Virus record (IMG/VR): IMGVR_UViG_3300028498_000027
Span: 1 to 36,703 of that record
Origin: a virus
DNA length: 36,703 bases
Direction: 5' to 3' (one strand)
Shown: in pieces, positions 16,582 through 34,503 of the stretch
Layout of the letters: each line of letters begins with the position of its first letter
Position numbering within the stretch: position 1 is the first letter of the stretch
The notes under the pieces: generated by a model
Told to the model about the DNA's origin: nothing
Seen by the model: only the letters and a program-made list of their open reading frames with translations
The model's database searches: none
Position numbers and translations under genes: made by a program

Positions 16582-16620
16582 AAAAAAAGCCCCGCCAAAT
16601 TAATGACGGGGCTTATTGTT
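16582..16620. terminator. Bidirectional intrinsic terminator between int and the tRNA-like element
   Basis: 7-bp stem AGCCCCG-(12-nt loop)-CGGGGCT, flanked by A7 upstream and TTATTGTTT downstream. On the minus strand it is followed by U7. Confidence 0.8.
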
Positions 16621-16729: not shown

Positions 16730-17224
16730 TTAATTATCTCTAGCAGCCCATCTTAGATTGCCAACAATACGACGTGACCAACCGCGCCCAAATGTGGCCC
16801 ATGTGCCTAAGCGTGTGTAAAAGTCCAAACGCTCAGCATTAAACAGTAGAATAATATCGTTCTGATCCATTGCTTTGACTGCTGCTAATGTTTTGGGTCC
16901 AATCAAACCATCATCATTCGCACCGATAGCCCGTTGCAGAAACTTAACAGCGTTACGGTTGCCGTGATTATATGCTGCATCAACTACCTGCCAAGCAACA
17001 GCACGCGGTAACTCGTCACCCTTTACAGCTTGCCAATACGATTTGTCTGCAATCGCTTGAGCTGTGGCTTTTGGCAGATTTCGCATACTGCCAGTATAAC
17101 CATACTGACGAGCAACACGTTTTGTCACGCCCCACATTGTCTCACCGCCAGGGTCGCTTGGATGATTGACGTAACCGCCCTCGTGCTCCATTAGTCGATT
17201 GAATAGGCTTTCAAAAATACTCAT
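16730..17224 (-). CDS. Endolysin, GH108 N-acetylmuramidase with a PG_binding_3 domain
   Basis: The N-terminal EHEGGYVNHPSDPGGETMWGVT matches the GH108 signature. The C-terminal half (DGLIGPKTLAAV...) matches the peptidoglycan-binding domain. It is the last gene of the late operon. Confidence 0.88.
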   Translation of the reverse strand: MSIFESLFNRLMEHEGGYVNHPSDPGGETMWGVTKRVARQYGYTGSMRNLPKATAQAIADKSYWQAVKGDELPRAVAWQVVDAAYNHGNRNAVKFLQRAIGANDDGLIGPKTLAAVKAMDQNDIILLFNAERLDFYTRLGTWATFGRGWSRRIVGNLRWAARDN

Positions 17225-17234
17225 ATTTCACCCC

Positions 17235-17257
17235 AAAAAAGCCCTAATTAAAGGGCT
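17235..17257 (-). terminator. Intrinsic terminator immediately upstream of the endolysin gene
   Basis: The minus-strand RNA reads AGCCCU-UUAAUU-AGGGCU followed by UUUUU, about 10 nt before the endolysin SD. Confidence 0.65.
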
Positions 17258-17273
17258 GTGTTTAATATACTTG

Positions 17274-17462
17274 CTAGAGCTTTGGTTGTTTAATTATGCG
17301 ACCTAAAAAGCCTGTCACTAATACGACAAAGCCCATGTACTCAGGCGGTATTAGATTACTATCTGTAGCTGCACCGATTAATGCTAATGCAAAGACAGCG
17401 ACAGTCGGCAAGATAACTGCTAGTGACTTATACATTTTTTGCCAGTTATTAATTAATTTCAT
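17274..17462 (-). CDS. Small two-TMD membrane protein (class II holin-like)
   Basis: 62 aa with two hydrophobic helices (LAVILPTVAVFALALIGAA and GFVVLVTGFLGRII) and a basic C-terminus. It is adjacent to the endolysin gene. Confidence 0.6.
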   Translation of the reverse strand: MKLINNWQKMYKSLAVILPTVAVFALALIGAATDSNLIPPEYMGFVVLVTGFLGRIIKQPKL

Positions 17463-17819
17463 TTACTTATCTCCAGTATCGTTGCATTTCGGTTTTTTAC
17501 GGACTTGCATATATGCGCTGTACCTTGTGATTAGCAGTAGCGCCAACACCCACATTACAAACCCTAAAAACCTTGCGAGCGTGTAACCCCAATGACCTTG
17601 ATAACCTAATGTGTGCAATGGAGGGTACGAGGTAATAGCTGATAATGCTAGAAAGCCATATATCGCCCAACTGAGCGCACCTGCACAAACCACGGCTAGC
17701 TCAAGTATTGGCGTATAGACTCCATCATCAACAACTCTCATGCGTGTGAGCATGACGAACAAACCCAAGATGACAGCGCATAGCGCCATCGTTAAATCAA
17801 GATAGATTGGCGCTATCAT
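17463..17819 (-). CDS. Three-TMD membrane protein (holin/antiholin-like)
   Basis: The preferred start is ATG at 17819 (AAGGAGA SD, 5-nt spacing). The track start is 17864. Three hydrophobic segments and a charged C-terminus (RKKPKCNDTGDK). Confidence 0.55.
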   Translation of the reverse strand: MIAPIYLDLTMALCAVILGLFVMLTRMRVVDDGVYTPILELAVVCAGALSWAIYGFLALSAITSYPPLHTLGYQGHWGYTLARFLGFVMWVLALLLITRYSAYMQVRKKPKCNDTGDK

Positions 17820-18315
17820 CGCTGTCTCCTTTTTTGTAAGCTGTGTCAATTTGAAAGTCGTCATCTACTGACGTGTCCAGTCCAGTGCGATTGCGTACCG
17901 CCTGATTGAGTGTTTTGTTGATGCGTTTTTGATTGCTAATCCACACCATTGTGCCTGCAACCAGTGGCGCACTAAATAGACCTGCTAACAGTGCAAATAA
18001 TGGCAACGCACCAGATTGCGCTTCGCTAAACGTATTGACAGCCAAACTTAACGCCACACCCATAAACACACCAATTAATGCTTTTGCTAGGCTTGGATAA
18101 TAAAAACTCTTATCAATCTCTGGGATTTTGACAAAAGCTGCACACAAGCCACCTGCTGTTGAAAAAACCCAAACACCCGTCCAGCTAAGCAAAAAAGGCG
18201 CGGGTAAAACCCCTGCATCAATGATGCGGTCAGCAGCCCATGCGCTAATTGGGTACGATGCAGCTAGAGCAGCTATGCAAGCCCACCATAGCTGCCAAAA
18301 CTTAATTTTAAGCAT
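17797..18315 (-). CDS. Multi-pass membrane protein (holin-like)
   Basis: 172 aa. It has a signal-peptide-like N-terminus ending AWA-AD, three further hydrophobic helices and a long charged C-terminal tail. It is the first gene after the tailspike terminator. Confidence 0.55.
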   Translation of the reverse strand: MLKIKFWQLWWACIAALAASYPISAWAADRIIDAGVLPAPFLLSWTGVWVFSTAGGLCAAFVKIPEIDKSFYYPSLAKALIGVFMGVALSLAVNTFSEAQSGALPLFALLAGLFSAPLVAGTMVWISNQKRINKTLNQAVRNRTGLDTSVDDDFQIDTAYKKGDSDDSANLS

Positions 18316-18340
18316 CTAGACCCCTCAAAATTTAGATAAT

Positions 18341-18362
18341 AAAAAACCCCAATTAATGGGTT
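18341..18362 (-). terminator. Intrinsic terminator overlapping the tailspike stop codon
   Basis: The minus-strand RNA reads AACCC-AUUAAUU-GGGUU followed by UUUUAUU. The stem is short. Confidence 0.5.
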
Positions 18363-20379
18363 AGGCTAGCGTTAGAATTGCTTTTCTCACGACACCATCT
18401 GTACCTTGTAGACGGATAGATACACTTGTATTACTCTCCGTGGTCAGTACAAGTTCGCCATTTGTGGTGGGGTTTTGATTGATACCATAACTACTAATTT
18501 TTCGACTGTGTACGGCTGCATAGCGTTTGGTTGCATAACCTAAATTCATAGTTAAATCTGTTGACGGGAATAGGTTGCCGTAATGCTCTATATCACCAGT
18601 CGTTGCAGATACCCAAAATATACGCTGAGTTGTGCCTGTGCTGTCGCGCCTCGATATAATCGGGTTTTTAGTGGGGTCAAAAAATACCAGCTCTCCGCTA
18701 TTCGTAAACACATAAGTAACTTGGTTTTTATAATCAGCAATAGCGTAGTAGTCATTAGCACGTCTTAATCGCCTGCCTGTATAGCTCGCATAACGCACAT
18801 CATCATAGTTCTCATCCATGACCAAGCTAGTTGTGGCACACACCCCGTCTGCTGAGGCGTAGCGACTAACAGCAGATTCACGAGCCATGTTTGGGCTTGT
18901 GTCAACACCATATTTTTCATTTGCATAAAAGTTTATATTACTGTCTGCAAAAGTAACGAGCCTTGAGCCTGTGCTAGTCTCAATCCAAGCGGTATTGACC
19001 TTGATTTGTTTAGATTCTTCATAGCAGTTAACAAAGTTAATATCACTACACTTACCCGCTATGATGTTTATATCTTGGCGGGTTATAAGCGTACAAGCAT
19101 TAAAGTTAATACCTCGAACCACTTTGCCACTTATCTCTATAGCACCTGATGGTCTGTCGCTATAGTTTGTCAGATTAGATGACGTTGCTAAGTAGGCGTT
19201 TTGCTCAATACCTCTGATATAACATTTATCAAACGTTGTACCCCCAAAACCATAGTTGGCAGTGGTTGTAATAACTTCTTGACAGCGTATAGATACCCCA
19301 AATTGACCACTGAAGCCACATTCACTAAAACGTAGCAGCTCACTACTTGGGATAGCTGTATCACCTGCAAAGCTATGCGCTGTGACCAACACACCTGCTT
19401 TGGCAAAGTGACCGAAAGCCCACACGCGACTAATCAAAGCCGAGTTAGCATTACGGCAAAGCAAACCCACGTCCCAGCCTTTTGCTAGTGTGTTGCTGCT
19501 GCTATTGGTGTACCCCGCAACACCATCATTATCAACTGTGATAAAGACATTGCTTAACTGACTAGCTTCCAATACCTCCACGCACACACTAAAGTTTTCA
19601 GCGTAGTTGTTTAGCTTGTAGACATCACCACGCGTTCCACTATCTGCTAGATACGCTTCACCAATGCTCGGGTTTGCAACTTGATAAACCGTATCAGTAA
19701 CGCCCTCCATAATATAGTCTTTAGAACCTGCACCCATAAATAGGAACGTAACAGGGTGATCGTAAAAATAACCAATACCTGCACCATTAAGTTTTACGTT
19801 TTTGGGGACTTTTAAAGTGTCGCTAATACAGTAAACACCCTCCGGCACGTAAATATTTTTAGCGCCACTTAGTAATGCGTTTTTGAGTGCTTGAGTGTCA
19901 TCTGTAGCGCCATCGCCTTTTGCACCAAAATCCTTAACTGATACGGTGTCACTGTTCTTTTCTGCTTGGGTTCTTGCGACACCGCTAAGTTTGGCGGTTG
20001 CTGTAATACCTGTGTCTAGTTTTACTTTGTTTAACTCGGTATTGGTGGTTACTAGGTCGCTTTCCACCGCGCTAACTTTATTTGTCAACTCTGTCGCATC
20101 ACCCTGACTAGCCGCTTGCGTCACATTGTCTTGTTCTTCAATAAACCGACCTGATTTGTCAAACACACGTATGCGATACGCGCCATTTAAAAATATATCC
20201 GCGCTGCCTGTATCGTCCAAAATAACAGGGTTGGTGTTTGGTACAGTTAGATCTGCATCGCTGTAGCTGTCTTGATTGGTGCTTGTACCTGCAAAATACG
20301 TGTAAACCTGTCCGCCAACCAACGGCGAACCTAAATCATTGGTAAATCGTGTCTTAATGCCTAAAAGTTGTGACGCCAT
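18361..20379 (-). CDS. Tailspike / receptor-binding depolymerase (pectate-lyase-3-type beta-helix)
   Basis: 672 aa. VSVKDFGAKGDGATDDTQALKNAL is the hallmark motif of the pectate lyase superfamily domain found in phage tailspikes. It lies downstream of the ejection proteins, as in P22-like phages. Confidence 0.85.
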   Translation of the reverse strand: MASQLLGIKTRFTNDLGSPLVGGQVYTYFAGTSTNQDSYSDADLTVPNTNPVILDDTGSADIFLNGAYRIRVFDKSGRFIEEQDNVTQAASQGDATELTNKVSAVESDLVTTNTELNKVKLDTGITATAKLSGVARTQAEKNSDTVSVKDFGAKGDGATDDTQALKNALLSGAKNIYVPEGVYCISDTLKVPKNVKLNGAGIGYFYDHPVTFLFMGAGSKDYIMEGVTDTVYQVANPSIGEAYLADSGTRGDVYKLNNYAENFSVCVEVLEASQLSNVFITVDNDGVAGYTNSSSNTLAKGWDVGLLCRNANSALISRVWAFGHFAKAGVLVTAHSFAGDTAIPSSELLRFSECGFSGQFGVSIRCQEVITTTANYGFGGTTFDKCYIRGIEQNAYLATSSNLTNYSDRPSGAIEISGKVVRGINFNACTLITRQDINIIAGKCSDINFVNCYEESKQIKVNTAWIETSTGSRLVTFADSNINFYANEKYGVDTSPNMARESAVSRYASADGVCATTSLVMDENYDDVRYASYTGRRLRRANDYYAIADYKNQVTYVFTNSGELVFFDPTKNPIISRRDSTGTTQRIFWVSATTGDIEHYGNLFPSTDLTMNLGYATKRYAAVHSRKISSYGINQNPTTNGELVLTTESNTSVSIRLQGTDGVVRKAILTLA

Positions 20380-20396
20380 ACATTTTCTCCAGACGT

Positions 20397-20418
20397 AAAA
20401 AAACCACCCGAAGGTGGC
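20397..20418 (-). terminator. Intrinsic terminator just upstream of the tailspike gene
   Basis: The minus-strand RNA reads (G)CCACC-UUCG-GGUGG(U) followed by U7, then the GGAGA SD and the ATG of the tailspike. Confidence 0.6.
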
Positions 20419-20456
20419 TTATGCTATGATTGATAAAAATCGATTAAGGGTTGATT

Positions 20457-20684
20457 ATGCGTAAAGTATTAATGATTTGTTTGGCTGTGGCGTTATCGGC
20501 TTGTAGTGATCCAAATAGCGAGCCTAAGTATGGCGCAGAATCACACCTACCTGCCAACTGCCGCGCCTACGTGCAAGAAAGCATCGACGGTTGGCGTAGT
20601 GGCGCATACGATACTGATGACACTATGGATGCGCTAGAAAGAAACTGCGGATTGGTTGGCGAATTATGGGATTACAAGCCTTAA
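20457..20684 (+). CDS. Small lipoprotein, reverse-oriented moron (candidate superinfection-exclusion or receptor-masking protein)
   Basis: ATG at 20457 (AAGGG SD). MRKVLMICLAVALSAC is a signal peptide with the lipobox LSAC. The mature part is about 59 aa with two further Cys. It is the only plus-strand gene inside the late region. Its stop overlaps the stop of the convergent ejection-protein gene (TTAA). Confidence 0.75.
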   Translation: MRKVLMICLAVALSACSDPNSEPKYGAESHLPANCRAYVQESIDGWRSGAYDTDDTMDALERNCGLVGELWDYKP

Positions 20685-22921
20685 TTACTTAAGTTTGCGG
20701 TTACAGCCGCCCCTGCCTGACCTGCTGCTGGCAACATACCAAGTAGTCTTAACTGCTCGTCGGTCAACCCTAATGACGAGCCTTTAGTAACGGCTGGTTT
20801 CCCATTTATCATTCTAGCCGCCTCGGTTGTATTTCGCCCATTCGCTGCCACATCTGTGATGGTTTTAGCACCACCAGTAATAAGATCAACACCTCGACCA
20901 ACAACAGGTATTCTACTTAGACCACCTGCCACACCTAGCAACTGATTGATAAGCGTACTAGCTGTGTTTGAGTCATTAATGTGCGCCCCTTGTGGGCGTT
21001 GCATCAATATATCACCGACCTTTTGAATGTCGTTAATACGTGCGATTTGCTCAGGACTAAACAACGCCCTCATTCGATTGTTGCCAAACGAGTTGATTGC
21101 TTTGTTGAGCTGCGCGGTACTAAATGCGCCATTGTCTGCGGCTGTGGCTTTAGTTAAAAAGTGCTCAATAGCTGCGCCTTGCAAGTCTGCTAGGTTCTGC
21201 TGACCTTGTGGTGATGCTCTTAGGTCATCAACCAGTTTCAGTAAATCGCGCTCATCAGCTTTCAACACAAACTTATCAAACGCCTTGTCTGGTGCTTTGT
21301 CGTCAAGTGCTGCTTTTAATGCTGGATTACTGTCAAGGTTTTGGAAACGCTCACGCGCTGCACCTCTCGCCTCATTCCAAGCACCTTGCGCCCCTGCTAG
21401 ACCGCCATCACTCGTGCCATTACCTAAACTACCGCTTAGCTCAGCGATTGAGTTATCGACCTCGTTATCTAGGTTTTTACGCACGATAGCGAGAGCTGCA
21501 CGTTCGTTGCCATCAGTGGTGGTTTTTAATCTAGCATTAAGGATTTTAACGATTTCTTCTGACTTACCATGCGTCAGCACAAAATCAGGATTATCAAACA
21601 TACCCTTAAATACACCGCGAATATCGCCTTTTAGGAACGAGCCTAGACCTTGTTCTTCTAGTTCTTTGCTAGTTTGGTCAATAAAGCGCATGTGGTTAAG
21701 CTGTGCGTCATTACCTGACATTTCACGCGCTGCGGTGTACTTTGCGCCAATATCTGCCTGTGCAGCTTCATCGCCTTGTTTTAGTGTTTCAAACGTGGAT
21801 TGCATACGAGTATTGTTATCGACTGGCTGTGCGCCTGTATCGTCTGCGAGTGATTGCCATTTGCTTGTTAATTGCTCGTTGTTGTCGATATGCACGTTGT
21901 TTAGATCGCTATTACTCTTTGCGAGTTCGCGCTCACTGCGCCAGTCGCTAGGGTTGCGGCTAAGCTGTGCTTGCGTGCCTTTGAAGCCGTTTTCATCGAG
22001 TAGTGACTTTCTGACGGCTGCGGCTGCATCAATCTGTTTCGACTTCATTAGATTTTGATTAGCTTCGTTAACTAGGCGTGTTCTTGCGGCTGGACTGACG
22101 CGAACGCCTGTCTCGGTGATTGCGTCATCAACGAGCTTGGTTGCTGCTCGCGTGGTTGCACCTGTCTTATTGGCAGTACGTCTTGCCACTTGTTTGACAG
22201 CCTTGCCAACTGCTTTACCTGCACCGACACCTACAACACCACCAACCGCCCCACCTACTGCGCCAACCGCTGTGTTACCCACTTGCTCGGCTGTGGAGTT
22301 TGCATTGCGTAGCGAGCCGTCTAGACCGCCTATTGCAGCTTCTCGACCTGCAAACGCACCTAACCCCTTTAACCCTGCTGACGGTGCGCCACCTGCGACA
22401 TATAACGGTGCTTTGGCTGCAATATCACCTGCCAACTCGCCCAAATCCATGCCGTCATAACCTGCTTGGTCACGTAGCTGTTCTTTACGTGCGTTCATCG
22501 CCTGTACGTCATCGTCATAGGCTGCGCGGTTATTAGTTGGCAAGTTAGTACCTGCGACGTTATTAATACCACCATACACCTTATCTACAAGGCTGTTATT
22601 AACCTGTGCAACTTTACCGAAGCTATTAGCAACACCTGTCATTGCGCTGTAGTTGGTACTTTTAACTTTATCGGCTAACGTGGGGTTTTTGTTCTTGGTT
22701 CGCGCTTTTGGATCAACTGGCTTGGTGCTGACGCCAAAATACTTGCCTAGTTCTTCAGTAGGTGATAAACCTGCGTCGCGTACTGACTTAATAATCTTTT
22801 GAACGTCTTTGCCAGTCTGACCGTCTAGCTTAGTGATTCCCAAGATGATTTTAGGGGCTGCTGTGCCTTTTCGTTTTTCGGCTGCAACGTAGTCTCTGAT
22901 GCGCTGTTCTGAGTTTGCCAT
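20681..22921 (-). CDS. Large internal virion / DNA-ejection protein
   Basis: 746 aa with Gly/Ala-rich segments. It is the last of four genes occupying the position of P22 ejection proteins gp7/gp20/gp16. ATG at 22921 has an AGGTGA SD. Confidence 0.65.
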   Translation of the reverse strand: MANSEQRIRDYVAAEKRKGTAAPKIILGITKLDGQTGKDVQKIIKSVRDAGLSPTEELGKYFGVSTKPVDPKARTKNKNPTLADKVKSTNYSAMTGVANSFGKVAQVNNSLVDKVYGGINNVAGTNLPTNNRAAYDDDVQAMNARKEQLRDQAGYDGMDLGELAGDIAAKAPLYVAGGAPSAGLKGLGAFAGREAAIGGLDGSLRNANSTAEQVGNTAVGAVGGAVGGVVGVGAGKAVGKAVKQVARRTANKTGATTRAATKLVDDAITETGVRVSPAARTRLVNEANQNLMKSKQIDAAAAVRKSLLDENGFKGTQAQLSRNPSDWRSERELAKSNSDLNNVHIDNNEQLTSKWQSLADDTGAQPVDNNTRMQSTFETLKQGDEAAQADIGAKYTAAREMSGNDAQLNHMRFIDQTSKELEEQGLGSFLKGDIRGVFKGMFDNPDFVLTHGKSEEIVKILNARLKTTTDGNERAALAIVRKNLDNEVDNSIAELSGSLGNGTSDGGLAGAQGAWNEARGAARERFQNLDSNPALKAALDDKAPDKAFDKFVLKADERDLLKLVDDLRASPQGQQNLADLQGAAIEHFLTKATAADNGAFSTAQLNKAINSFGNNRMRALFSPEQIARINDIQKVGDILMQRPQGAHINDSNTASTLINQLLGVAGGLSRIPVVGRGVDLITGGAKTITDVAANGRNTTEAARMINGKPAVTKGSSLGLTDEQLRLLGMLPAAGQAGAAVTANLSN

Positions 22922-23868
22922 GTGTCACCTGCTTGTGTTGGCTGCGGTTCATCTAAAGTAAGGTTTGCCATGAAATCATCATAGTTTTCGCCAATATCAG
23001 GCAATTGCTGTTCTTGCTGTGGCTCATCGGTCTGTAAGCGCGACATGAAATCATCGTAACCGTCGCCTATGTCGGGTAGTTGTGTTTCAGGCGCGGATTG
23101 CTCACCAATATTAGCCATAAAATCATCATAACTGCCACCAATATCAGGTAGTTCGTATTCAGGCTCTTGCTGTGCAATCGATACGTTTAGACCTAAATCC
23201 TTTGCAATATCACTAAGATTTGCGCCTTTACTGATTAGGTAATTAACTTCACGACCTGCCAAACCATTGTTGTTGGCAAGCTCCATAAATATCTCATTGT
23301 CACTGCGCTTGCCTTTGCCTTTACGTAGAGTAGCAAGTAAATCAGGCGCAGACATGGATAGCCTCGGATCAACTTGCGGTTGCTGTTGTGATGGTTGATA
23401 ATCACCGCCTAAAAACTTATTGACTGTTTTCCATGACTTTGTTGGCTGACTGTAGCTTGCTGGGGCTGTTGGTAATGACGCCCAAGTACGGCCTGACTTT
23501 CTCACCGCGCCTGTCATATCGCCTTTTAGAATATCACCTAACGCGCCATTTTGAGCGAGTAAGGCAACCGCACCTAAGTCTTGATTGCGTGGGCTAAAGT
23601 CATTCAATCCATACTGACGCGCTACACCATCCCATGTGCTAGATAGGAATTGATAGCGACCTGCTGCACTGGTTTTGTTAGTTTTTCCGTTCTGTTGAGT
23701 AAATGACTTCATATAGCGCGGATGGTCATTAAGACTACCAAGACGACCACCACCAAACGCTGTTCGGTAACCGTTACCCTCCGTACCCTCTGTATGAGCA
23801 ATCAAATCTAAAAACTGGCGTACTTTAGGGTTATTTAATGCTTGCTCTAACTGCTTGCGTGTAGCCAT
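22825..23868 (-). CDS. Virion-associated lytic transglycosylase (lambda R-like GH104 domain) with C-terminal LPDIG repeats
   Basis: FLDLIAHTEGT, AGRYQFLSSTWDGVARQYGLNDFSPRNQD and TWASLP parallel lambda R FLDMLAWSEGT, AGRYQLLSRWWDAYRKQLGLKDFSPKSQD and IWASLP. It lies within the ejection-protein block. Confidence 0.85.
   Translation of the reverse strand: MATRKQLEQALNNPKVRQFLDLIAHTEGTEGNGYRTAFGGGRLGSLNDHPRYMKSFTQQNGKTNKTSAAGRYQFLSSTWDGVARQYGLNDFSPRNQDLGAVALLAQNGALGDILKGDMTGAVRKSGRTWASLPTAPASYSQPTKSWKTVNKFLGGDYQPSQQQPQVDPRLSMSAPDLLATLRKGKGKRSDNEIFMELANNNGLAGREVNYLISKGANLSDIAKDLGLNVSIAQQEPEYELPDIGGSYDDFMANIGEQSAPETQLPDIGDGYDDFMSRLQTDEPQQEQQLPDIGENYDDFMANLTLDEPQPTQAGDTWQTQNSASETTLQPKNEKAQQPLKSSWESLS
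22969..23151 (-). repeat. Three in-frame coding repeats (period 72-75 nt) encoding LPDIG..YDDFM
   Basis: 36-nt cores at 22969..23004, 23044..23079 and 23116..23151. They translate LPDIGGSYDDFMA, LPDIGDGYDDFMS and LPDIGENYDDFMA. Confidence 0.9.
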
Positions 23869-25355
23869 TATTTACTCCCTAAAATACCGCCAATGATTGA
23901 CGCGCCTTTACCGCCTTTCTTTGACGATTGAGGCTTGCTATTGGTGCGAGCGCCTGACCCATACTCAGGCAATATCACCCCGTCATATTCTCGCTTGTAG
24001 TCTGCATAACTAGAGTATTCTGCTCTATTTTTTGAGTCAAAATCCCTGACGATTTTAGTAAGCAGTGCTACAGCCGTCTTGTTGTTTCTTGGTATGTACG
24101 TCCCTGCTTGCATTTCCTCCAATGCTCGCTTGTAGTCCATATCAGTTTGCACACCTGCGTTTAAGCGCAATGCATCCGATGCGAGTTTCACCATATTGGA
24201 TTTAAATTCAGCATAAGCTGCTGGATTGCCGCCAAGTGAATCAACACCCGTGCGATTGGCAAGCGAGTTCATGCTATTAGCCATAGCACCAAGATTTAGC
24301 TCACCACTTTGGATTTTTTGAACCCATGTTGCAGCATTTCTAATTGTGTAGGCATTGCTCTTGATGTTCGTTAAATGCTTACTCATTTCTTTTGTGGCAG
24401 CTACCGCTCTAGGCTTTCTGTTTGCTTGTGGATTATCAATTTTTTGCTGTGCCTGTGAAACTTTTGCCCAACCTATTTTGCCGTCTTGGTCTAGCTTCAA
24501 CCGTCTATCTTGGCTATCTACATCGGTATTGTAACGAGTGTCTGCGCTGCGAACGTTTGTACCGTACACGCTAGCATTGTAAGTATTGTCAGATACATAC
24601 TCACGAGTGGTGTTATCCGCCGTATTGGTAGTTAATTTTGTTTGATTGTCTAATACGTTATCAGGCGTCGCGCCTTTGGTGATTTGTGCATTTGGTGCGT
24701 TTTGCTCGCCAGTAAATGCGTTATTTGTGACGCTATAAATCTTATCGCCAGCATCTATTGTGTCGCTTGTAGGCTTAAATAACTTAGCCAGTTCAGGATT
24801 TGCCATTACCATTGATTGCATGACTTTTGCAGCATTGGTTGGATCGGTTGTTATCAGCTTGAGCATTGCATCTGTGCGCTCAGGTGTAATCAATCCTTGT
24901 CTGGTCATTTCACCTAAGCCAAGCGCAAACAGTTTTGGGTCTTGCGTGACAGCCAGTGCTGATATGTCGTTTTGAATACCTGCTGTGTTTTCTCTTACTA
25001 CACCTGTTGTTTCAGCACCTATTTTGCCTGACTCAGCATTGAGCTTGCTTGTTTCTCCATAGGTTTTGCCAATATCAGCACTAGCGCCTAAGTTATCAAG
25101 CGCAGCCTTTTGCCTTGCTTCTTCGTACTTTTGCAGCTCGGGCACTAACGCCCCTGCATACTTATGGGTGCGAGCCTTTGCGATGCGCTCGTTAAAGTCC
25201 TCAATACCCATCAGCTCGTTAAGCGCTTTTGTCTGCTGCCGACCTTCGTATTCTTGACGTAGTTTTTGACCATCGCGGAATTGGTCAGCCCATCCGCTAG
25301 TATCGACTACTGCTTGACCGCCTAGCAATGCTGCGTTGTTGACTGCCATTACCAT
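23868..25355 (-). CDS. Internal virion / ejection protein (hypothetical)
   Basis: 495 aa with an AGGAG SD, placed within the ejection-protein block. No enzymatic motif recognised. Confidence 0.6.
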   Translation of the reverse strand: MVMAVNNAALLGGQAVVDTSGWADQFRDGQKLRQEYEGRQQTKALNELMGIEDFNERIAKARTHKYAGALVPELQKYEEARQKAALDNLGASADIGKTYGETSKLNAESGKIGAETTGVVRENTAGIQNDISALAVTQDPKLFALGLGEMTRQGLITPERTDAMLKLITTDPTNAAKVMQSMVMANPELAKLFKPTSDTIDAGDKIYSVTNNAFTGEQNAPNAQITKGATPDNVLDNQTKLTTNTADNTTREYVSDNTYNASVYGTNVRSADTRYNTDVDSQDRRLKLDQDGKIGWAKVSQAQQKIDNPQANRKPRAVAATKEMSKHLTNIKSNAYTIRNAATWVQKIQSGELNLGAMANSMNSLANRTGVDSLGGNPAAYAEFKSNMVKLASDALRLNAGVQTDMDYKRALEEMQAGTYIPRNNKTAVALLTKIVRDFDSKNRAEYSSYADYKREYDGVILPEYGSGARTNSKPQSSKKGGKGASIIGGILGSK

Positions 25356-25366
25356 ATCTTGTACTC

Positions 25367-26128
25367 CTAGATGAACATACCGCCAGCTTTCATGCCAAGC
25401 CCAATAAGATTGTTAATGCCCTGTATTTTTGATGATGCAGCACCTATCAAGCCGTTAGCCTGTGCGTTTGCGCCATTAATAGCAGCATCGCCCTGTGTTG
25501 CAGCGTTCTGTGCGCCAAACTGACCAAGCGTGTTAGCTGTCTGCTGACCAACACCCGCCATGTTTGCAAGCTGATTGTAGAGGCGCGAATCTTCGTTGCT
25601 GAACAGCTGATAGTCTTGTGAACGGTTGCCGCTTAATGTGCTCATAAGGTTCTGCTTTTCCGCTTGGTCACGACTCCATGCATTACCGTATTCTTGACTT
25701 GCTAAGTCGCTGTTGTACTGGTTTAGGCTTTTAAGTGCTGCACCTGATAACAAGCTACCGCTAGCTGCTGCGCTTGACTGAATACCGTCCATACCTTCTT
25801 GCTTGCGGAATTGATACGATGGGTCATTTTGAAAGTTGTTTGGATCAAGACCGCCTGTTAGCTGTCCGTTTTGATAAGCGGATTCAATACGACCGCCCCA
25901 TTTGTCGTTGTAGTCAGCGCTGTTATCGACATACTGCGTTAAATCGCCTAGTGCATTTTTACCTGCTGTTAGCCACGGCATTTGGTCTTTTCGTGTCTGC
26001 TCGTACTGCTTTTGGCTAATATCGGCTGCATACTTGCTAGAGTCAGCCTGTAGTTGACCTGCATCTGTCGCGGCCTTTGCGCCTGTCTTGCCTGTAATGC
26101 CGTTAAATACGTCTTTGACAAAACTCAT
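25367..26128 (-). CDS. Internal virion / ejection protein (hypothetical, Gly/Gln/Ala-rich)
   Basis: 253 aa, low-complexity and rich in G/Q/A/N. Its start overlaps the GNAT gene stop by 4 nt. Confidence 0.55.
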   Translation of the reverse strand: MSFVKDVFNGITGKTGAKAATDAGQLQADSSKYAADISQKQYEQTRKDQMPWLTAGKNALGDLTQYVDNSADYNDKWGGRIESAYQNGQLTGGLDPNNFQNDPSYQFRKQEGMDGIQSSAAASGSLLSGAALKSLNQYNSDLASQEYGNAWSRDQAEKQNLMSTLSGNRSQDYQLFSNEDSRLYNQLANMAGVGQQTANTLGQFGAQNAATQGDAAINGANAQANGLIGAASSKIQGINNLIGLGMKAGGMFI

Positions 26129-26559
26129 GATTGCACCTCACAAAAATAAAGCCGCTCAAGCGGCCTAAAGTTATTCTTTTCTAAAAATCCACCAATGGGC
26201 GCACTATCACGACTTGCCGCATACCAGTAATTCACACCCATTCGCTTTAATCGATGCTTGATACCCTTGATAAAATAAGCGCTATTACCTCTATGCCCAG
26301 GCTTTACCCATAGCACATCGGTTGATGCGTCGATAATCGATTGATTGCGTAGTGATGGGCTGATAAACAGCAATGCTACCGCCTTTACTTCGTCACTGTC
26401 GTCATCTGTCCAGATGAACGGCTTTAGCACACCCATTTCGTCAAGTTCACAGTACCGCTCAACTGGAATGTCAACCGTCTGCGGCTCAAGGTGCAACATA
26501 TCCATCATCATTGACGTTATTTCATCTTGATAGTCTGCGAATTTGACTTGTTTAATCAT
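26125..26559 (-). CDS. GNAT-family N-acetyltransferase (tentative)
   Basis: 144 aa. VLWVKPGHRGNSAYFIKGIKHRLKRMGV fits GNAT motif A (V.P..RG.G....L........G). It has 4-nt overlaps with both virion-module neighbours. Confidence 0.55.
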   Translation of the reverse strand: MIKQVKFADYQDEITSMMMDMLHLEPQTVDIPVERYCELDEMGVLKPFIWTDDDSDEVKAVALLFISPSLRNQSIIDASTDVLWVKPGHRGNSAYFIKGIKHRLKRMGVNYWYAASRDSAPIGGFLEKNNFRPLERLYFCEVQS

Positions 26560-26879
26560 GTGAACGTCACCCCACTGACCACAATAACAGCGCCTTCACC
26601 TGTCGCTTGTATGCTCATACCTGCGCTAAGCGTGTGATTGACAAGCTCAGGGCATGGATAGCTTTCAGACTCTTGCAACGTGCGCGATAGCATCTGACTT
26701 GCTGCATCTGCTGTGCTTGACTGGTTGACGTAATAGATTTTTACGTTGATCGGTGCGTCTGTTGGGTTATGAATGGTGCAGCCCATGATTTGAGCTGATA
26801 GTTTGTCTGTTACGGTGTAAAGTGGATTTGCTGTAGCAGTCATCACTTGCGGTGCTACTAATAATCTACGCTTAATCAT
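26556..26879 (-). CDS. Hypothetical virion-module protein
   Basis: 107-aa ORF, translationally coupled at both ends. Confidence 0.55.
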   Translation of the reverse strand: MIKRRLLVAPQVMTATANPLYTVTDKLSAQIMGCTIHNPTDAPINVKIYYVNQSSTADAASQMLSRTLQESESYPCPELVNHTLSAGMSIQATGEGAVIVVSGVTFT

Positions 26880-27235
26880 ACGTTAAGCCCCCATATTTGT
26901 TGGTCATAAAGTTGCTGCTCAATCGCTGACATTAGCGCGTAAGGGTTATTTTCTGTTGGTTCGTCATGGCTCATGCTGAGCGCGACATTGTTTATTTGCT
27001 CATCAGGCATGACGACTGGCGCAACATAGGTCGATAGCTCGTCACTATTCAGATAAGACGCGATACTTGCGACACCTATGCTTAAAACATCTGCATCGTC
27101 GCCTTTCTCAATCGTGCCTGACGATATGACGTTGTTGTTTAGGCGCATCAGCTCATTGATAAAAACAAGCCATTCCTGCGTGACAAAGCCGTTTGCAGCG
27201 ACCATCTGTGACTGTGGTATTTTCAACTGTTGCAT
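26876..27235 (-). CDS. Hypothetical virion-module protein (at the position of a tail plug or needle)
   Basis: 119-aa ORF directly after the gp10-like gene. I see no similarity to P22 gp26. Confidence 0.5.
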   Translation of the reverse strand: MQQLKIPQSQMVAANGFVTQEWLVFINELMRLNNNVISSGTIEKGDDADVLSIGVASIASYLNSDELSTYVAPVVMPDEQINNVALSMSHDEPTENNPYALMSAIEQQLYDQQIWGLNV

Positions 27236-28650
27236 CAGCTCACCTCTAGTTCTGCGCCTGTAATAACAAGCATGGCAGCATCGGTCACACGTATGCGATA
27301 AGCACGATTGCGACTTGCACCAAGCCTTGTCCAGAACGTGCGCTTTTTATGCTGTCCACGCTTACCAAGACCGCGCCAACGAGTGTCCGACCAACTCACA
27401 CCGTCATCATCCGACCATGAAAGCATTACCTGTGGGTCGTAGGCGCTGTTTACCGCGCCTGTGGCTTGCTGTGCTATCAATGTTAAGCGGTTATGCCTAA
27501 CCATGCCTTGAGTGCGACTGACAGCGTGTGTGCTGCGTTCTCGTACCTGCGGCAACGACTCGTCACCGATAACGTCCATATAGTCGCTGCTATTGGTCAT
27601 GAGCGTTATTTGGTCAACGTGGGCGAATATGTGACGGCCTTTGCGCATAGCGTGGTATTGGCTAGGGTGTCGTACAAACTCACCATTACGGAATAAGGCG
27701 CGTTCATGCCATAAGCCAGTTGCACCATCAAACACCCATGTCTTGTTAGCGCGCGGGATGTTTAACACGTAAAAGCTATGGCCTGTTTCTTGATAGACGT
27801 ATGCGCTTGCATCTGTCGTATCGTAGGTTGACAGCTCTTTTTCTAATGCGTGGTTGCTGATGCGCTGCACCTGATAACCTTGCGTCATAACGACTTGAGA
27901 ATTGCCATTGATGCTATTTGACAGCCAAACTAGCGACTCACCGAACCGCTGGATAGTCTGCGGTAGCAAACACCCTGCATTGATTGCTGCACCTTGCATC
28001 GGTAAAAATGCGGCATTGTCATCGCCTGTTGCATACCATATTTCTGTTGATGTATCGCCAAACACCCATAGTTGTTTTTGGTGCGCCTGAATGGCGGTAA
28101 CGTTATCAGGACTCGCTTCTGCTGTGGCAAAGTTAAGTGGATCAATATTGGTGCTTAACACGTCAGTCCAAAATATCTGACCAGTACCACGACGGTTAAA
28201 GATAAAACGCTGTGCTAGCGTTGTCACATCATCGGCAGGATAGAGTAATTGCGCTCCATACTGCGCCCATTCACCGCTAAGCATATCTAAGGTGTAAACA
28301 GTGCTGTCACTCACAAAACAAGCAAACTGACTGTTCTCAGCGATAATAACAGGCTTGTCACCGTCAATATAAACATCAGGCATCGGCTCGAATGTATCAT
28401 CTAGCTTGTAAAGATCATGCCCATACACTGCATACAGACTGCCATTAGACAAGGCGGTAAAACCTCGGCATATAGCAGCCGTATTGTCACCGTATAGTGT
28501 TTTCATAGCTGGCGTAGGTAGTAAGGCGCTAACTGTCTTATCACTACCCTGCGTGACCTCTGGGTAAAGATTGATGCACGTTTGACAGCCTATGACGCTA
28601 TTTGGGTCTTTGTAAGCACCGCCAACGATAGGTAGGTTAATAGAAGCCAT
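27235..28650 (-). CDS. P22 gp10-like tail accessory / packaged-DNA stabilisation protein
   Basis: 471 aa. The C-terminal RTFWTRLGASRNRAYRIRVTDAAMLVITGAELEVS parallels the P22 gp10 end RVLWKRVGRIRRLIGFKLRVITKSPVTLSGCQIRLE. It follows the gp4-like gene. Confidence 0.75.
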   Translation of the reverse strand: MASINLPIVGGAYKDPNSVIGCQTCINLYPEVTQGSDKTVSALLPTPAMKTLYGDNTAAICRGFTALSNGSLYAVYGHDLYKLDDTFEPMPDVYIDGDKPVIIAENSQFACFVSDSTVYTLDMLSGEWAQYGAQLLYPADDVTTLAQRFIFNRRGTGQIFWTDVLSTNIDPLNFATAEASPDNVTAIQAHQKQLWVFGDTSTEIWYATGDDNAAFLPMQGAAINAGCLLPQTIQRFGESLVWLSNSINGNSQVVMTQGYQVQRISNHALEKELSTYDTTDASAYVYQETGHSFYVLNIPRANKTWVFDGATGLWHERALFRNGEFVRHPSQYHAMRKGRHIFAHVDQITLMTNSSDYMDVIGDESLPQVRERSTHAVSRTQGMVRHNRLTLIAQQATGAVNSAYDPQVMLSWSDDDGVSWSDTRWRGLGKRGQHKKRTFWTRLGASRNRAYRIRVTDAAMLVITGAELEVS

Positions 28651-29026
28651 ATCGGTTGCACCCTAGCGGCAATTGCGAGCATGAGTAAACAGGCTTAGTG
28701 TTTGAGTGCTTAACCACAGTCATTGCTCGCGCTTGCTGACGTAGTAGTGATGCTGACGGCTCAATACCGTAATCGGGTGCTAAGTCCACAGCCAAGCCCA
28801 AGATAATGAGCCGCTGTAAGCTGTCAATCATCGGTATGTCGGTATCAAGCTCGATAGGTAGATATAAATCAACTGGCATATCGATTAGTGATTGCAGCTC
28901 GTACTCACTCAGCAAGCCGTTAAGCGTATCTAGCGCTGTCGCTGCATCGTCATACGGCACTTCTTCACCTGTCGCATAGACACCAAGCCGTGTTAATGCT
29001 GCTCTGATTATCTCGGTTGCTTTCAT
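28637..29026 (-). CDS. P22 gp4-like head-to-tail adaptor protein
   Basis: 129 aa. The N-terminal EIIRAALTRLGV parallels P22 gp4 DLVRAALRKLGV. Its position between the head genes and the gp10-like gene is as expected. Confidence 0.7.
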   Translation of the reverse strand: MKATEIIRAALTRLGVYATGEEVPYDDAATALDTLNGLLSEYELQSLIDMPVDLYLPIELDTDIPMIDSLQRLIILGLAVDLAPDYGIEPSASLLRQQARAMTVVKHSNTKPVYSCSQLPLGCNRYGFY

Positions 29027-29030
29027 ATGG

Positions 29031-29573
29031 TTACTCGCTGTCTTTAGCCTTCTGAATTAGCGCGTCTTTGCTGTCACGTTCGACAAAATCAACGTCACGC
29101 TGCTCAAGCAATGATTTCAGCTCGTCTTTGGTCATTTCATCGTATGACACGACACCATCACCGTTTACGTCTTTGCTTTCTTCGTAGATTGCTAGTTTGG
29201 CTTTTAGGTCTGCGACTTCCTGCGTATCGTCATACGGTAAGTTTGGTCTGTCTGACAACTCAGCCCTTAGCGTGTCGATATGCTCATGGTTAGCAGCAAT
29301 TGATTTGTCTTTGCTTTCAACCTGACCTTTTAGATCAAGAATCTCACCATCTTTAACGTCAATCGCGTTTTCTAGCAATTCGATGTGCTCATAGGCTTCT
29401 GCTAATTGGTCTTGCTCGTCGTTAGTTTCTTGCTCGTCAGCTTTCGGTTCAATCTTCACTGCTTCTGCATGAGTGATATAACCGCGCTCTGTCAGCTTGT
29501 CGTACTCATCGTCATCATGTGCGATTGCATGGCTATTTAAGCCGCCTAGATAAAGCATTACTGGATAGTCCAT
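29031..29573 (-). CDS. Hypothetical acidic coiled-coil protein with an EF-hand-like loop and a C-terminal HeH/SAP-like motif
   Basis: The preferred start is ATG at 29573, giving MDYPVMLYLGG... The track start is 29633. DVNGDGVVSYDE (29136..29171) fits the 12-residue EF-hand loop D-x-N-x-D-G-x-V-x-x-x-E. It is followed by MTKDELKSLLEQRDVDF...DALIQKA. Confidence 0.6.
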   Translation of the reverse strand: MDYPVMLYLGGLNSHAIAHDDDEYDKLTERGYITHAEAVKIEPKADEQETNDEQDQLAEAYEHIELLENAIDVKDGEILDLKGQVESKDKSIAANHEHIDTLRAELSDRPNLPYDDTQEVADLKAKLAIYEESKDVNGDGVVSYDEMTKDELKSLLEQRDVDFVERDSKDALIQKAKDSE

Positions 29574-29653
29574 GTGTAAACCTCGTTTGTTGGTTAAATC
29601 TATCGCAATATACACCGACCTAAGCCAGTGCATATAACTATAAATCTAGTGGT

Positions 29654-30910
29654 TTATGGTGCTAGAACACGCGCTGCATGGTTACCACGGATAGCAGCAA
29701 AGCCATATAGAACGTCAATACGAGTGCCTTCTGTATCTTGCGTGAAGTTACCGCCTGACTGCACACGTAACGCCATAGTCGATGCGTTGACCGTGTAACC
29801 TTCAAGACCTGCCAATACTTTCATTGGTGCAAATGCTGCTGCAAATGCGTCTTTTTGGAAGCATAGGGCTTGTTCAATCAGTGCGTTACTATCCATAACG
29901 AACGTGATAGCCGCACTGTTGGCTGGGCTTGCCGTTACTGTTGCGTTGGCTTTTAGCTGTGATGCGACGGTTGCAGGTGTGATTTCAGGGAAGATGCTAA
30001 GCGTTGCGGTTGTACCACCTGCTGTTACATCCTCTAGAACTACAAACTGCAATGGTACGCTGTACGTTTGGCGTGTGATTGGGTGGATTTGCTCAACACC
30101 TGCAATGGTAAATACTTCGCCACGCTTGATGGTATCGCCATTCGTTAAGCCGCCTACAACTAGCTCGCTGCCTGTTTGTCCTGCACCTGACACTGTTAAG
30201 CCAGTTTTAGCGTGTGAGCCAGTAGATTGACGATAGATATGCTCAGACTCGACAAACTCAAAGCCACGACTACGACCAATATAACCTTCTTTCCACTGCT
30301 TAGCGATTTCAGCCGTTGGATTGAACAACGTACCTGCTGGATCAACAATTTGGTTGGTCAGCTCAGATGACAACATAGACATACGGTCAACTGATGGTGC
30401 TAATGCGCGGTTGAGCATTGTACGAGCACGACCCCATGCTGCTGTTGGATGGGTTTCGCTTGCCAACATAGCAGTCATGTTGTTGACCGATACAATGGCG
30501 CGTTGTAGCAAGTCAGCATCGATTGATGTAGCTAGTGAGTTGATAGCAGGTTGCAAGAAGCGAGTCTTAAAGTCTGTCATGTTCAGCGTTAATTCAGCCG
30601 CACCAAACTCTAAACCTACGTGCTTTTGAGTATCAATTTTTAATAGCACCGATTTCTCTTGGGCGTTCTCGTTGGCATCGTCAGACTTAAAGACGTGGCC
30701 TTCTGTCACGATAGGCGTAGGTGGAACGCGAATGCGAACGCTATCGCCTTTTTTATAGCCTTGTGTGTCTTTGTTAAACTCTTTTTCACGGTTGCGGTTA
30801 ATCGCCTTAATGAATTGCGATTCTTCGACCAACATTGCAGCCGCCTCTTTTGCGACCATTTCATGAGTTAAGATTTTGTTGTTGCTGTTTTCGCTGTAGT
30901 TTTTAGCCAT
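29654..30910 (-). CDS. Major capsid protein, P22 coat-protein family
   Basis: 418 aa. Its position after the scaffold gene fits. GLTVSGAGQ...TIKRGEVFTIAGV parallels P22 coat GITVSGAQS...GMKRGDKISFAGV. Confidence 0.85.
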   Translation of the reverse strand: MAKNYSENSNNKILTHEMVAKEAAAMLVEESQFIKAINRNREKEFNKDTQGYKKGDSVRIRVPPTPIVTEGHVFKSDDANENAQEKSVLLKIDTQKHVGLEFGAAELTLNMTDFKTRFLQPAINSLATSIDADLLQRAIVSVNNMTAMLASETHPTAAWGRARTMLNRALAPSVDRMSMLSSELTNQIVDPAGTLFNPTAEIAKQWKEGYIGRSRGFEFVESEHIYRQSTGSHAKTGLTVSGAGQTGSELVVGGLTNGDTIKRGEVFTIAGVEQIHPITRQTYSVPLQFVVLEDVTAGGTTATLSIFPEITPATVASQLKANATVTASPANSAAITFVMDSNALIEQALCFQKDAFAAAFAPMKVLAGLEGYTVNASTMALRVQSGGNFTQDTEGTRIDVLYGFAAIRGNHAARVLAP

Positions 30911-30927
30911 GTTATTTCTCTCTTAGT

Positions 30928-31797
30928 TTATAAACCCCGTGACCGCATAAAGTCGTCGTCTGACTGGCTGTACTGGTCACGCTTAATAGGTGCGTTTGCT
31001 TTAGTGTGATTAGGTGGTTTTGGTGCTTTACTCTGTCTTGCAGCTTTTGATACGCCCTTTTTGGCCTGTATCGTGGCATGAATACGTCCAAACTCTGCGT
31101 ATTGCTTAGACGGTGGCATTTCTGCCAATTCGTAATACAAGTCGTGGTCAGCGGCAACGTGCTCTAGTAAATCCATCAGGTCATCACCTTGATAGAGTTC
31201 GCTAGGGTCGGCTTGGATCGGCTTATCTTGCATAAGCGTCGCTAGTTGCTGAAAGTTCTCTTTAAACTCAGGATTGGCCTTGAACCTTGCGTTAAAGGTC
31301 TGAGTTATTTCAGCATTGCGTTGTTCTTGCTGCTTAGCCTGTTCACGTTGTTGCAAGCGTTGGTCAAGTTTCCAGTCTTGGTGCTTTTCGTCATACTCTG
31401 CTTGTGCTGCAAAATACGAGTCCAGACCGCCTTCGCTATCAAGGTCGTAATCCTCAATATTTGGCTTAACTGGCGCACCGTCACCGCTAGCCGCTTGTTT
31501 GGGCTGCTGTGCTTGATTGCGCATTTGTTCCAGCTCTGCTTCAACCGCTTTCTTTTCGGCTAATATCTGCTGAATACGCTCACTTGCTCGACCTTTCTTT
31601 TTGGGTTCGGGTTCAGTCTCGGTTTCTTCTTCATCCGATTCATCACCGTCACTCTCAGCATCATCATCAGTCGCTTCCTCTGTGTCTGCTTGCGCTTCCT
31701 CATCATCTGCGTCCTCTGTTACTTCTACCGTTTCAACTTCCACGGTTTCGGCTGGTTCATTGATGCTGTCATCTTCTACGCTTGTATCAAAAGCCAT
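30928..31797 (-). CDS. Scaffolding protein
   Basis: 289 aa with an extremely acidic N-terminus and a helical, Gln-rich middle. It lies between the portal and coat genes. Confidence 0.75.
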   Translation of the reverse strand: MAFDTSVEDDSINEPAETVEVETVEVTEDADDEEAQADTEEATDDDAESDGDESDEEETETEPEPKKKGRASERIQQILAEKKAVEAELEQMRNQAQQPKQAASGDGAPVKPNIEDYDLDSEGGLDSYFAAQAEYDEKHQDWKLDQRLQQREQAKQQEQRNAEITQTFNARFKANPEFKENFQQLATLMQDKPIQADPSELYQGDDLMDLLEHVAADHDLYYELAEMPPSKQYAEFGRIHATIQAKKGVSKAARQSKAPKPPNHTKANAPIKRDQYSQSDDDFMRSRGL

Positions 31798-31894
31798 TGT
31801 TCTTACTCCAAATTTAACGATTCATCATCGGGGTTTACGTCACTAAGCGCAGTAATCCCATCCGTGACGTCGATAGGCTGCGAATTTTAGGCAT

Positions 31895-31919
31895 AAAAAA
31901 AGCCCACCGAAGTGAGCTT
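31895..31919 (-). terminator. Intrinsic terminator inside the head module, after the 87-aa ORF
   Basis: The minus-strand RNA reads AAGCUCAC-UUCG-GUGGGCUU (8-bp stem, UUCG loop) followed by U7. Confidence 0.8.
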
Positions 31920-31943
31920 TGTTTGGATTAATCGATTGGTTGG

Positions 31944-32207
31944 CTAGTCCCACTCAAAACGCAGGCTGTATGTAATACCGGTCTTTACACCATCATTGTA
32001 AGGTTGGGTTAGTTCGGTATAGTCCGCCACAAAATAACCCTCATGCACCAGAGTATTGGTAGCTCTAAAGACCTCATCAATAGTAAATTTAGACAATCTA
32101 GCCTTGTTGATATCCAGTCTTACAACACCCTCTTGTCTGCAACGTTGTATTTTCTCAGATATATAAACGTAAGCCTTATTGTGGTCAGCGTCATTAGTGT
32201 GCAGCAT
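31944..32207 (-). CDS. Hypothetical protein, moron-like insert between the portal and scaffold genes
   Basis: ATG at 32207 (AAGGAG SD, 7-nt spacing). 87 aa, no motif recognised, and followed by its own terminator. Confidence 0.6.
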   Translation of the reverse strand: MLHTNDADHNKAYVYISEKIQRCRQEGVVRLDINKARLSKFTIDEVFRATNTLVHEGYFVADYTELTQPYNDGVKTGITYSLRFEWD

Positions 32208-32233
32208 AATCAACTCCTTGTTTAATAGAGTTA

Positions 32234-34492: not shown

Positions 34493-34503
34493 TGCGTATC
34501 TCT

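Follow-up and report, generated by a model that had tools for sequence, protein, structure and literature searches.

A lipoprotein gene in the sieA position of a P22-like temperate phage genome: a mobile cargo family with a possible role in exclusion at the host envelope

In phage P22 (record BK000583) the gene sieA lies directly after gene 16, is convergent to it and has its own promoter, upstream of immI and gene 9; the order is gene 16, sieA, orf59a and mnt on the opposite strand, followed by arc, ant and gene 9. SieA, which the prophage expresses, blocks the injection of DNA and has been reported only in P22-like prophages of Enterobacteriaceae (PMC10883804). We analysed a stretch of 36,703 nucleotides from a virus, positions 1 to 36,703 of the IMG/VR record IMGVR_UViG_3300028498_000027, which is a P22-like temperate phage genome and is called the window below. 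In the window a gene for a prelipoprotein of 75 amino acids (aa) has the same position and orientation as sieA of P22. A preliminary description, made from the letters of the DNA, had taken the gene for a lipoprotein moron, i.e. accessory cargo. As precedents it named sieA and immI between gene 16 and gene 9, which is exact according to the P22 record, and the lipoproteins Llp of T5 and Cor of phi80 and N15. The moron and the sieA precedent held up in our analysis, while the analogy to Llp and Cor lost ground.

Our best reading, to which we assign a probability of roughly 45%, is that of an envelope lipoprotein expressed by the prophage and acting in exclusion via a conserved host target. The gene would have its own promoter and be read in opposition to the late operon, with an extended -10 element immediately 3' of a hairpin, and the same hairpin would be a terminator on the other, late strand. 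The lipoprotein would be made in the lysogen and would exclude incoming phage or other DNA at the envelope, probably by binding a conserved component of the host envelope that is needed for DNA delivery. Masking of a receptor matched to the tailspike or binding of fast-evolving phage proteins such as the ejection proteins would be unlikely routes.

The gene and its parts are these:

20457 to 20684, plus strand: coding sequence of the prelipoprotein including the stop, 75 aa (open reading frame, 83 homologues, dN/dS 0.10)
20457 to 20504, plus strand: signal peptide and lipobox LSAC, read from the sequence, with Cys16 at 20502 to 20504
20505 to 20681, plus strand: mature part, 59 residues, with the motifs GLPANCRAYVQ (Cys35) and LERNCG..G.LW (Cys64) and a helical hairpin in the AlphaFold2 prediction
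20446 to 20450, plus strand: Shine-Dalgarno sequence AAGGG, 6 nt before the ATG (AGGGG in the related loci L001 to L004)
20681 to 20684, no single strand: TTAA with the overlapping stops of the lipoprotein gene (20682 to 20684, plus) and of a 746-aa gene (20681 to 20683, minus)

Translation from the ATG at 20457 to the TAA at 20682 to 20684 gives a product of 75 aa that begins MRKVLMICLAVALSAC and reads in full MRKVLMICLAVALSACSDPNSEPKYGAESHLPANCRAYVQESIDGWRSGAYDTDDTMDALERNCGLVGELWDYKP. A positive n-region (MRK), a hydrophobic core (VLMICLAVA) and the lipobox (LSAC) follow each other at the N-terminus, in agreement with the pattern [LVI][ASTVI][GAS]C after a charged n-region and a hydrophobic h-region. 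Judged by these features the lipoprotein is a putative substrate of Sec and signal peptidase II with a 59-residue domain from Cys16, where the mature protein is predicted to start and to carry its lipid. The further Cys codons are C35 at 20559 to 20561 and C64 at 20646 to 20648. The cleavable signal peptide is the sole hydrophobic segment. The mature part is polar and without a transmembrane segment; it is predicted to face the periplasm. By the Lol rule of E. coli the serine at +2 predicts the inner leaflet of the outer membrane, although this rule may not hold for the host group.

Among the minus-strand late genes from 16730 to 36535 the lipoprotein gene was the only one on the plus strand; the remaining plus-strand open reading frames (ORFs) of at least 90 aa in this range all lie inside minus-strand genes. 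A lipobox scan of all six frames of the window found no second credible lipoprotein ORF. The 4-nt stop overlap with the convergent ejection gene was also present in L001 to L004 and in a further relative with other cargo (L026, see below). The preliminary description was correct about the 75-aa prelipoprotein with its lipobox LSAC, a mature part of ~59 aa and two more Cys, about the sole plus-strand gene amid the late genes and about the stop overlap with the convergent 746-aa gene in TTAA. On the other hand, it had the feature start at 20397, which marks the hairpin and not the gene.

Among 5.8 billion proteins searched we found 83 relatives with E-values of 1e-44 to 6e-9, nearly all of them 75 to 90 aa long; when 1.84 billion cluster representatives were searched with the profile, only 119 clusters turned up. 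At least 90% of 75 aligned family members share the lipobox Cys. Invariant residues in the family alignments are N20, G26, L31, N34, R36, E61, R62, N63, C64 and G65, and C35, A37, Y38, Q40, R47, G68 and W71 are nearly invariant; many of them make up the two conserved motifs of the mature part listed above. Across Gamma- and Betaproteobacteria the identity is 45-60% with ~20 invariant or nearly invariant residues. Between the window gene and its orthologues of L001, L002 and L004 dN/dS was 0.10 with a dS of ~0.9-1.0. The 83 homologues, the conserved lipobox and two Cys and the low dN/dS demonstrate that the gene is real, and we are highly confident that it is a genuine lipoprotein cargo gene. 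The family that it represents is mobile and uncharacterised.

AlphaFold2 with the family alignment (mean pLDDT 82.5) gave a signal helix (residues 2-13) and helices at 33-48 and 53-64, i.e. the mature domain is predicted to be a two-helix antiparallel hairpin. Because Cys35 and Cys64 lie at the hairpin ends that meet, a disulfide staple between them is likely, as judged from the arrangement of the helices and not from a distance in the model. Between the Cys that bears the lipid and the onset of conservation (D18, N20) there are only 1-4 residues, so the domain would be held near the membrane.

No family of Pfam (E <= 0.1), PHROG, NCBIfam or PADLOC matched the lipoprotein. In NCBIfam at E <= 1 there were just two sub-threshold matches, both confined to the signal peptide. 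The profile had no match to PDB sequences at E <= 10, and Foldseek searches of PDB and BFVD yielded nothing significant with a best E above 1, which is uninformative for a two-helix hairpin. No match was obtained by tblastn at E <= 1 against 50,697 phage records, a collection that includes P22 (SieA) and presumably also T5 (Llp) and phi80 and N15 (Cor). The PLSDB plasmids were also without a tblastn match, and a literature search found no paper on the family. Long multi-stretch profile matches (P0118, P0146, P0149, P0200) were discarded as spurious translations of low-complexity repeats; the longer lipoproteins P0166 and P0185 have extensions without a Pfam domain. In RefSeq and UniRef the relatives are named "hypothetical protein" or "kynureninase", the latter being the only specific public name. 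It is carried, as a propagated misannotation, by the ~77-aa lipoproteins WP_263511887.1, WP_244013205.1 and WP_151752539.1. Real kynureninases are pyridoxal-phosphate enzymes of ~400 aa with the aminotransferase class V fold. The label was ruled out for the 75-80-aa lipoproteins, which have no Pfam match at E <= 0.1 and, apart from the two signal-peptide matches, none to an NCBIfam enzyme model at E <= 1.

The slot of the gene is bordered by two late genes:

20681 to 22921, minus strand: last gene of the ejection cluster, 746 aa, in the position of P22 gene 16 (synteny, P22-like virion module)
18361 to 20379, minus strand: tailspike, 672 aa, with a pectate-lyase-like fold (PF12708, tail-spike PHROGs)

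Like the lipoprotein, SieA is an accessory envelope protein found in only some relatives. Yet SieA is a polytopic inner-membrane protein of 164 aa, and there is no sequence relation to SieA types A to C: phrog_7745 detects P22 SieA (9e-109) and not the lipoprotein, nor was there a tblastn match. In Moraxellaceae and Burkholderiales the lipoprotein family, unlike SieA, extends to siphovirus prophages, plasmids and chromosomes.

In L001 to L004 the layout is the same as in the window with the ejection gene (minus), the lipoprotein gene (plus), the hairpin and the tail genes (minus), and the four lipoproteins are mutually 100% identical (P0004). A different cargo was seen in L026, a close relative with an ejection gene 78% identical to that of the window and the same N-terminal tailspike domain. 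Its slot (3108-3350, minus strand in locus coordinates) contains an unrelated 80-aa polytopic membrane protein, for which there was no PHROG match. The L026 gene is convergent, too, and shows the 4-nt stop overlap, and a late-strand hairpin with a T-run precedes the ribosome-binding site of the tailspike gene. Since L026 carries an unrelated membrane protein there, the slot is a cargo-exchange site, and this shows that in Moraxellaceae P22-like prophages it holds interchangeable, unrelated small envelope proteins. Variable presence at this junction, a question left by the preliminary description, was thus found, and the exchange together with the mobility of the family supports the view of the gene as a moron.

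The contexts of the family are diverse. A P22-like prophage of A. nosocomialis (L013) has the gene on the late strand, after the ejection genes; beyond it are a terminator of palindromic sequence, an Arc/Mnt-like gene in reverse orientation, an antirepressor and tailspikes. In another P22-like prophage (L027/L028) it overlaps by 11 nt with the end of a gene for a 95-aa repressor of the Arc/Mnt family, i.e. it is located downstream of an mnt-like gene like sieA in P22. Two face-to-face promoters (10/12 and 11/12 matches) are present there. One reads the repressor and the lipoprotein gene, the opposing one drives an Arc-like gene, a KilA-N antirepressor and tailspikes, which is the layout of immI in P22. 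This immI-like switch is at 7429-8240 in L027 and at 7477-8240 in L028. Lambda-like siphovirus prophages of A. bereziniae have the gene in a moron cluster of secreted proteins and lipoproteins between the tape-measure gene and gpM, with a terminator upstream of it. The neighbouring morons in L016 (8291-9553) are secreted LptD_N-like and TonB_C-like proteins, which may mimic host envelope machinery. Another Acinetobacter prophage has the gene between RusA and the terminase gene with a bidirectional terminator, and in a prophage from a metagenome-assembled genome (MAG; L021) it stands beside the CI repressor. Mobilizable MobA/MobL plasmids of Psychrobacter of ~4.6 kb carry it in many samples, and it was also seen next to an IS110 transposase.

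Two kinds of proteins recur directly upstream of family members. A secreted protein of ~110 aa (phrog_2315) precedes the gene in two types of Acinetobacter prophages (L010 9379-9702, L014 9537-9875); it may be a linked partner, although the window has no copy. A coiled-coil protein with a signal peptide or anchor is encoded directly upstream in A. nosocomialis (L013 9624-10004) and on the Psychrobacter plasmids (L022 1267-1560). These two are weakly similar to each other (E 0.008), and the plasmid protein resembles the N-terminal extension of P0090, a fusion member that is not a lipoprotein (E 2e-5). The sequences hint at a two-gene module of coiled-coil protein and lipoprotein.

Upstream of the lipoprotein gene we identified two elements in the window:

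20422 to 20430, plus strand: candidate extended -10 TGcTATGAT (TGCTATGAT), proposed from position and conservation, with a predicted transcription start at ~20437
20394 to 20420, minus strand: late-strand intrinsic terminator from a terminator scan, stem 20420 to 20401 and T-run 20400 to 20394

The extended -10 motif is located 27 nt before the ATG and was invariant in the window, L001, L002 and L004. The 39 nt between hairpin and ATG differ at 3 positions between the window and L001, while the synonymous sites of the gene are ~54% different. The preliminary description had found no convincing promoter; the conserved extended -10 is a plausible one for the lipoprotein gene. A scan had proposed TTGATA-17-GATTAT (20430-20458), which was ruled out because its -10 overlaps the ATG.

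The terminator hairpin folds at -11.2 kcal/mol, modestly better than shuffled sequences (z = -1.76). It lies ~20 nt upstream of the tailspike start at 20379, directly before the ribosome-binding site of that gene, and has a T-run on the late strand only. Its stem was kept by compensatory changes among relatives (CCACC/GGTGG, CCCTC/GAGGG, CCGCC/GGCGG), L026 with its other cargo included. Thus the hairpin is functional, and the minus-strand terminator that the preliminary description had placed before the tailspike start was borne out. Downstream of the lipoprotein gene, terminator scans found no convincing plus-strand terminator; transcription of it would continue in antisense direction into the ejection gene.

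The placement in the mnt-like operon of L027/L028 argues for expression of the lipoprotein in the lysogen. Together with the opposite orientation in the window, the conserved promoter-like element and the neighbouring CI gene in L021 it strongly suggests lysogen expression, and we consider it probable that the gene is expressed from the prophage.

T5 Llp and Cor of phi80, N15 and T1 are likewise small prelipoproteins of ~75-78 aa with cysteines in a mature part of ~60 residues. Llp, which binds FhuA, is encoded by an early gene, and its phage is virulent. A mask of this type would bind the outer-membrane protein used by the phage as entry portal or secondary receptor, block superinfection by phages of the same type and protect the progeny from inactivation by debris. 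The window lipoprotein is like Llp in size and design with its 75-aa precursor, its ~59-aa mature part with two Cys and its very short tether; in addition, the gene is adjacent to and divergent from the gene of the receptor-binding protein, the tailspike. Apparent co-transcription with late genes in L013 would fit the protection of progeny. However, no similarity to Llp or Cor was seen in the phage collection (tblastn, E <= 1), in PHROG or by Foldseek in BFVD and PDB.

Furthermore, a mask like Llp or Cor would be coupled to the receptor-binding protein of its own phage, whereas the identical lipoprotein P0004 adjoins at least three different receptor-binding modules. The module of L001 consists of proteins of 357, 130 and 737 aa with a collagen-like part, the distal protein of L002 has 801 aa, of which just 61 aa are common with the L001 protein, and the spike of L004 is a beta-helix protein of 663 aa with only the N-terminal 180 aa common with the window spike. 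Because identical lipoproteins accompany different modules, the lipoprotein is not matched to the receptor-binding protein and does not co-vary with it. Judging from the pectate-lyase type of the tailspike, the primary receptor of the window phage is a polysaccharide, which a lipoprotein facing the periplasm cannot mask. That lambda-like siphovirus prophages, plasmids and chromosomes carry the family, too, disfavours a mask fitted to the receptor-binding protein of the phage itself, so that we regard a receptor mask as quite improbable.

Prophage proteins that exclude phages by blocking DNA entry through the tape-measure protein are a second point of comparison. Ltp of the Streptococcus phage TP-J34 and gp15 of HK97 have been cited as such exclusion systems (PMC10883804). 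Ltp is a prophage-encoded lipoprotein, too, and gp15 is a moron among tail genes, comparable to the A. bereziniae copies of our family, whose moron cluster immediately follows the tape-measure gene. They differ from the window lipoprotein in that there is no homology, in that Ltp is larger and belongs to a Gram-positive host and in that gp15 is an inner-membrane protein.

An exclusion function, deduced in part from the sieA slot of P22, is a tentative assignment. As evidence for it we counted the neighbours of envelope type, namely the secreted and lipoprotein morons of A. bereziniae including the LptD_N-like and TonB_C-like proteins. The conservation across two proteobacterial classes, the independence from receptor-binding proteins and the occurrence in siphoviruses and on plasmids suggest that the partner would be a conserved host component.

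Several findings weigh against a prophage-expressed exclusion lipoprotein. The promoter is based on one 9-nt motif that occurs 3 times in the window with 3.5 expected and has no -35 match; because the motif is no commoner than chance, the argument for it rests on position and conservation. The L013 copy reads in the direction of the late ejection genes and has a 4-nt overlap with the gene before it, so this lineage may express the lipoprotein late. None of the searches in Pfam, PHROG, the phage records, NCBIfam, PDB, Foldseek or PADLOC revealed homology to any characterised exclusion protein. Finally, chromosomal copies lie by housekeeping genes in Comamonadaceae/Limnohabitans (hisF-like, DegP, PdxA) and in Piscinibacterium, and these copies together with the purifying selection fit an ordinary envelope function at least as well as an arms race.

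The same chromosomal contexts, which are not of phage origin and are conserved in Comamonadaceae/Limnohabitans, speak for a role in lysogenic conversion or host physiology. The periplasmic lipoprotein would then have a cellular function in the envelope (stress tolerance, integrity or serum resistance) and be carried as a benefit to the host, for which Bor of lambda is an example. Its presence as cargo on the small Psychrobacter Mob plasmids and the very strong conservation across two proteobacterial classes (dN/dS 0.10) point in this direction as well. Three P22-like lineages, on the other hand, have the gene precisely in the sieA/immI slot, the close relative L026 swaps it for another small membrane protein, the neighbours are typical morons of envelope interference, and no known family of host-fitness lipoproteins matched in Pfam or NCBIfam. 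We consider a host function unlikely on balance; since conservation, independence from receptor-binding proteins and occurrence in siphoviruses and plasmids come with chromosomal copies, it stays a serious rival.

A bolder form of the exclusion reading would be a horizontally mobile and so far unrecognised class of disulfide-stapled helical-hairpin lipoproteins that bind one conserved envelope machine of Proteobacteria and thereby close a route of DNA entry used alike by unrelated invaders. This would explain the carriage by podovirus and siphovirus prophages and by plasmids, the high conservation and the uncoupling from receptor-binding proteins. The P22-like carriers have the gene in the sieA slot and in the mnt operon, and the plasmid carriers are found in naturally competent Moraxellaceae. 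We think of it as a rather improbable generalisation.

On this evidence the protein family would be new and the kind of role familiar. If they do exclude phages, the 59-residue domain would be a new compact exclusion protein of relevance to phage therapy against Acinetobacter and would help to find the conserved component of the envelope on which incoming DNA depends. If they do not exclude phages, they are still a widespread cargo lipoprotein of mobile elements.

Rz1-type o-spanins are further small phage-encoded outer-membrane lipoproteins with periplasmic cysteines. A role as an o-spanin-like component of lysis, which would disrupt the outer membrane when infection ends, was considered because the gene is the sole lipoprotein gene in the window and the lysis cassette at 16730-18315 has no recognisable Rz/Rz1-type pair; moreover, the gene for a secreted or anchored coiled-coil protein is located directly upstream of the lipoprotein gene in L013 and on plasmids. 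Yet, unlike Rz1, the lipoprotein gene does not share the strand of the late and lysis genes and is 2 kb from holin and endolysin, the window has no i-spanin-like partner ORF, and a helical hairpin is predicted instead of a proline-rich unstructured periplasmic domain. In addition, it is exchangeable, as the polytopic membrane protein of L026 demonstrates, and homologues are found far from lysis genes and on plasmids and chromosomes. Thus a spanin role is essentially excluded. The lysis region 16730-18315 itself encodes the GH108 endolysin, a DUF7940 holin and two multi-transmembrane proteins of 133 and 172 aa with an overlap of 68 nt; neither an i-spanin/o-spanin pair nor a u-spanin was recognisable in it.

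The genome of the window has the P22 portal (P22_portal, 3.5e-151), P22_CoatProtein, Phage_stabilise/gp10, the ejection-protein cluster, the tailspike and holin and GH108 endolysin on the minus strand, and an S24 CI-type repressor, RecT, YqaJ, a single-stranded DNA-binding protein (SSB) and an integrase on the plus strand. No close relative of the phage was found in INPHARED or IMG/VR: an IMG/VR scan with the 746-aa ejection protein gave none, and megablast of 18000-23000 against the 50,697 phage records gave no match. The 746-aa protein had no match in Pfam or PHROG and a single distant one in tblastn against phages, a Pseudomonas phage at 25% identity. The relatives derive from metagenomes and from a MAG, where the element is present as an integrated prophage.

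The tailspike is modular. Its N-terminal ~110-180 aa are conserved among relatives and the C-terminal part is exchanged. In a comparison of the window with L001, L002, L004 and L026 the N-terminal ~90-180 aa were common (52-82% identity), while the receptor-binding parts were unrelated and comprised a pectate-lyase-like spike, a beta-helix spike and collagen-like multi-gene fibres.

Upstream of the 746-aa gene on the minus strand a 347-aa protein (22825-23868) is encoded, the N-terminal domain of which is lysozyme- or transglycosylase-like (phrog_17230, phrog_90). Its C-terminal third has three tandem copies of LPDIG-x-YDDFM with acidic and Q-rich linkers. The 347-aa and 746-aa genes overlap by 97 nt in different frames (22825-22921); L001, L002 and L026 conserve the N-terminal part of the 746-aa protein that falls in this stretch, thus the overlap seems real.

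Further terminators on the late strand are located at 16587-16614 (minus) after the endolysin gene, at 17240-17257 (minus) between holin and endolysin and at 18345-18362 (minus) after the tailspike gene. Since several intrinsic terminators interrupt the late strand, we infer antiterminated late transcription as in P22 and lambda. The strong terminator at 16587-16614 adjoins the end of the integrase gene (16550), where the attP site is expected. Finally, an 89-aa ORF (31944-32213, minus strand) fills the gap between portal and scaffold genes and has the sequence TGcTATAAT just upstream (32233-32241, minus strand).

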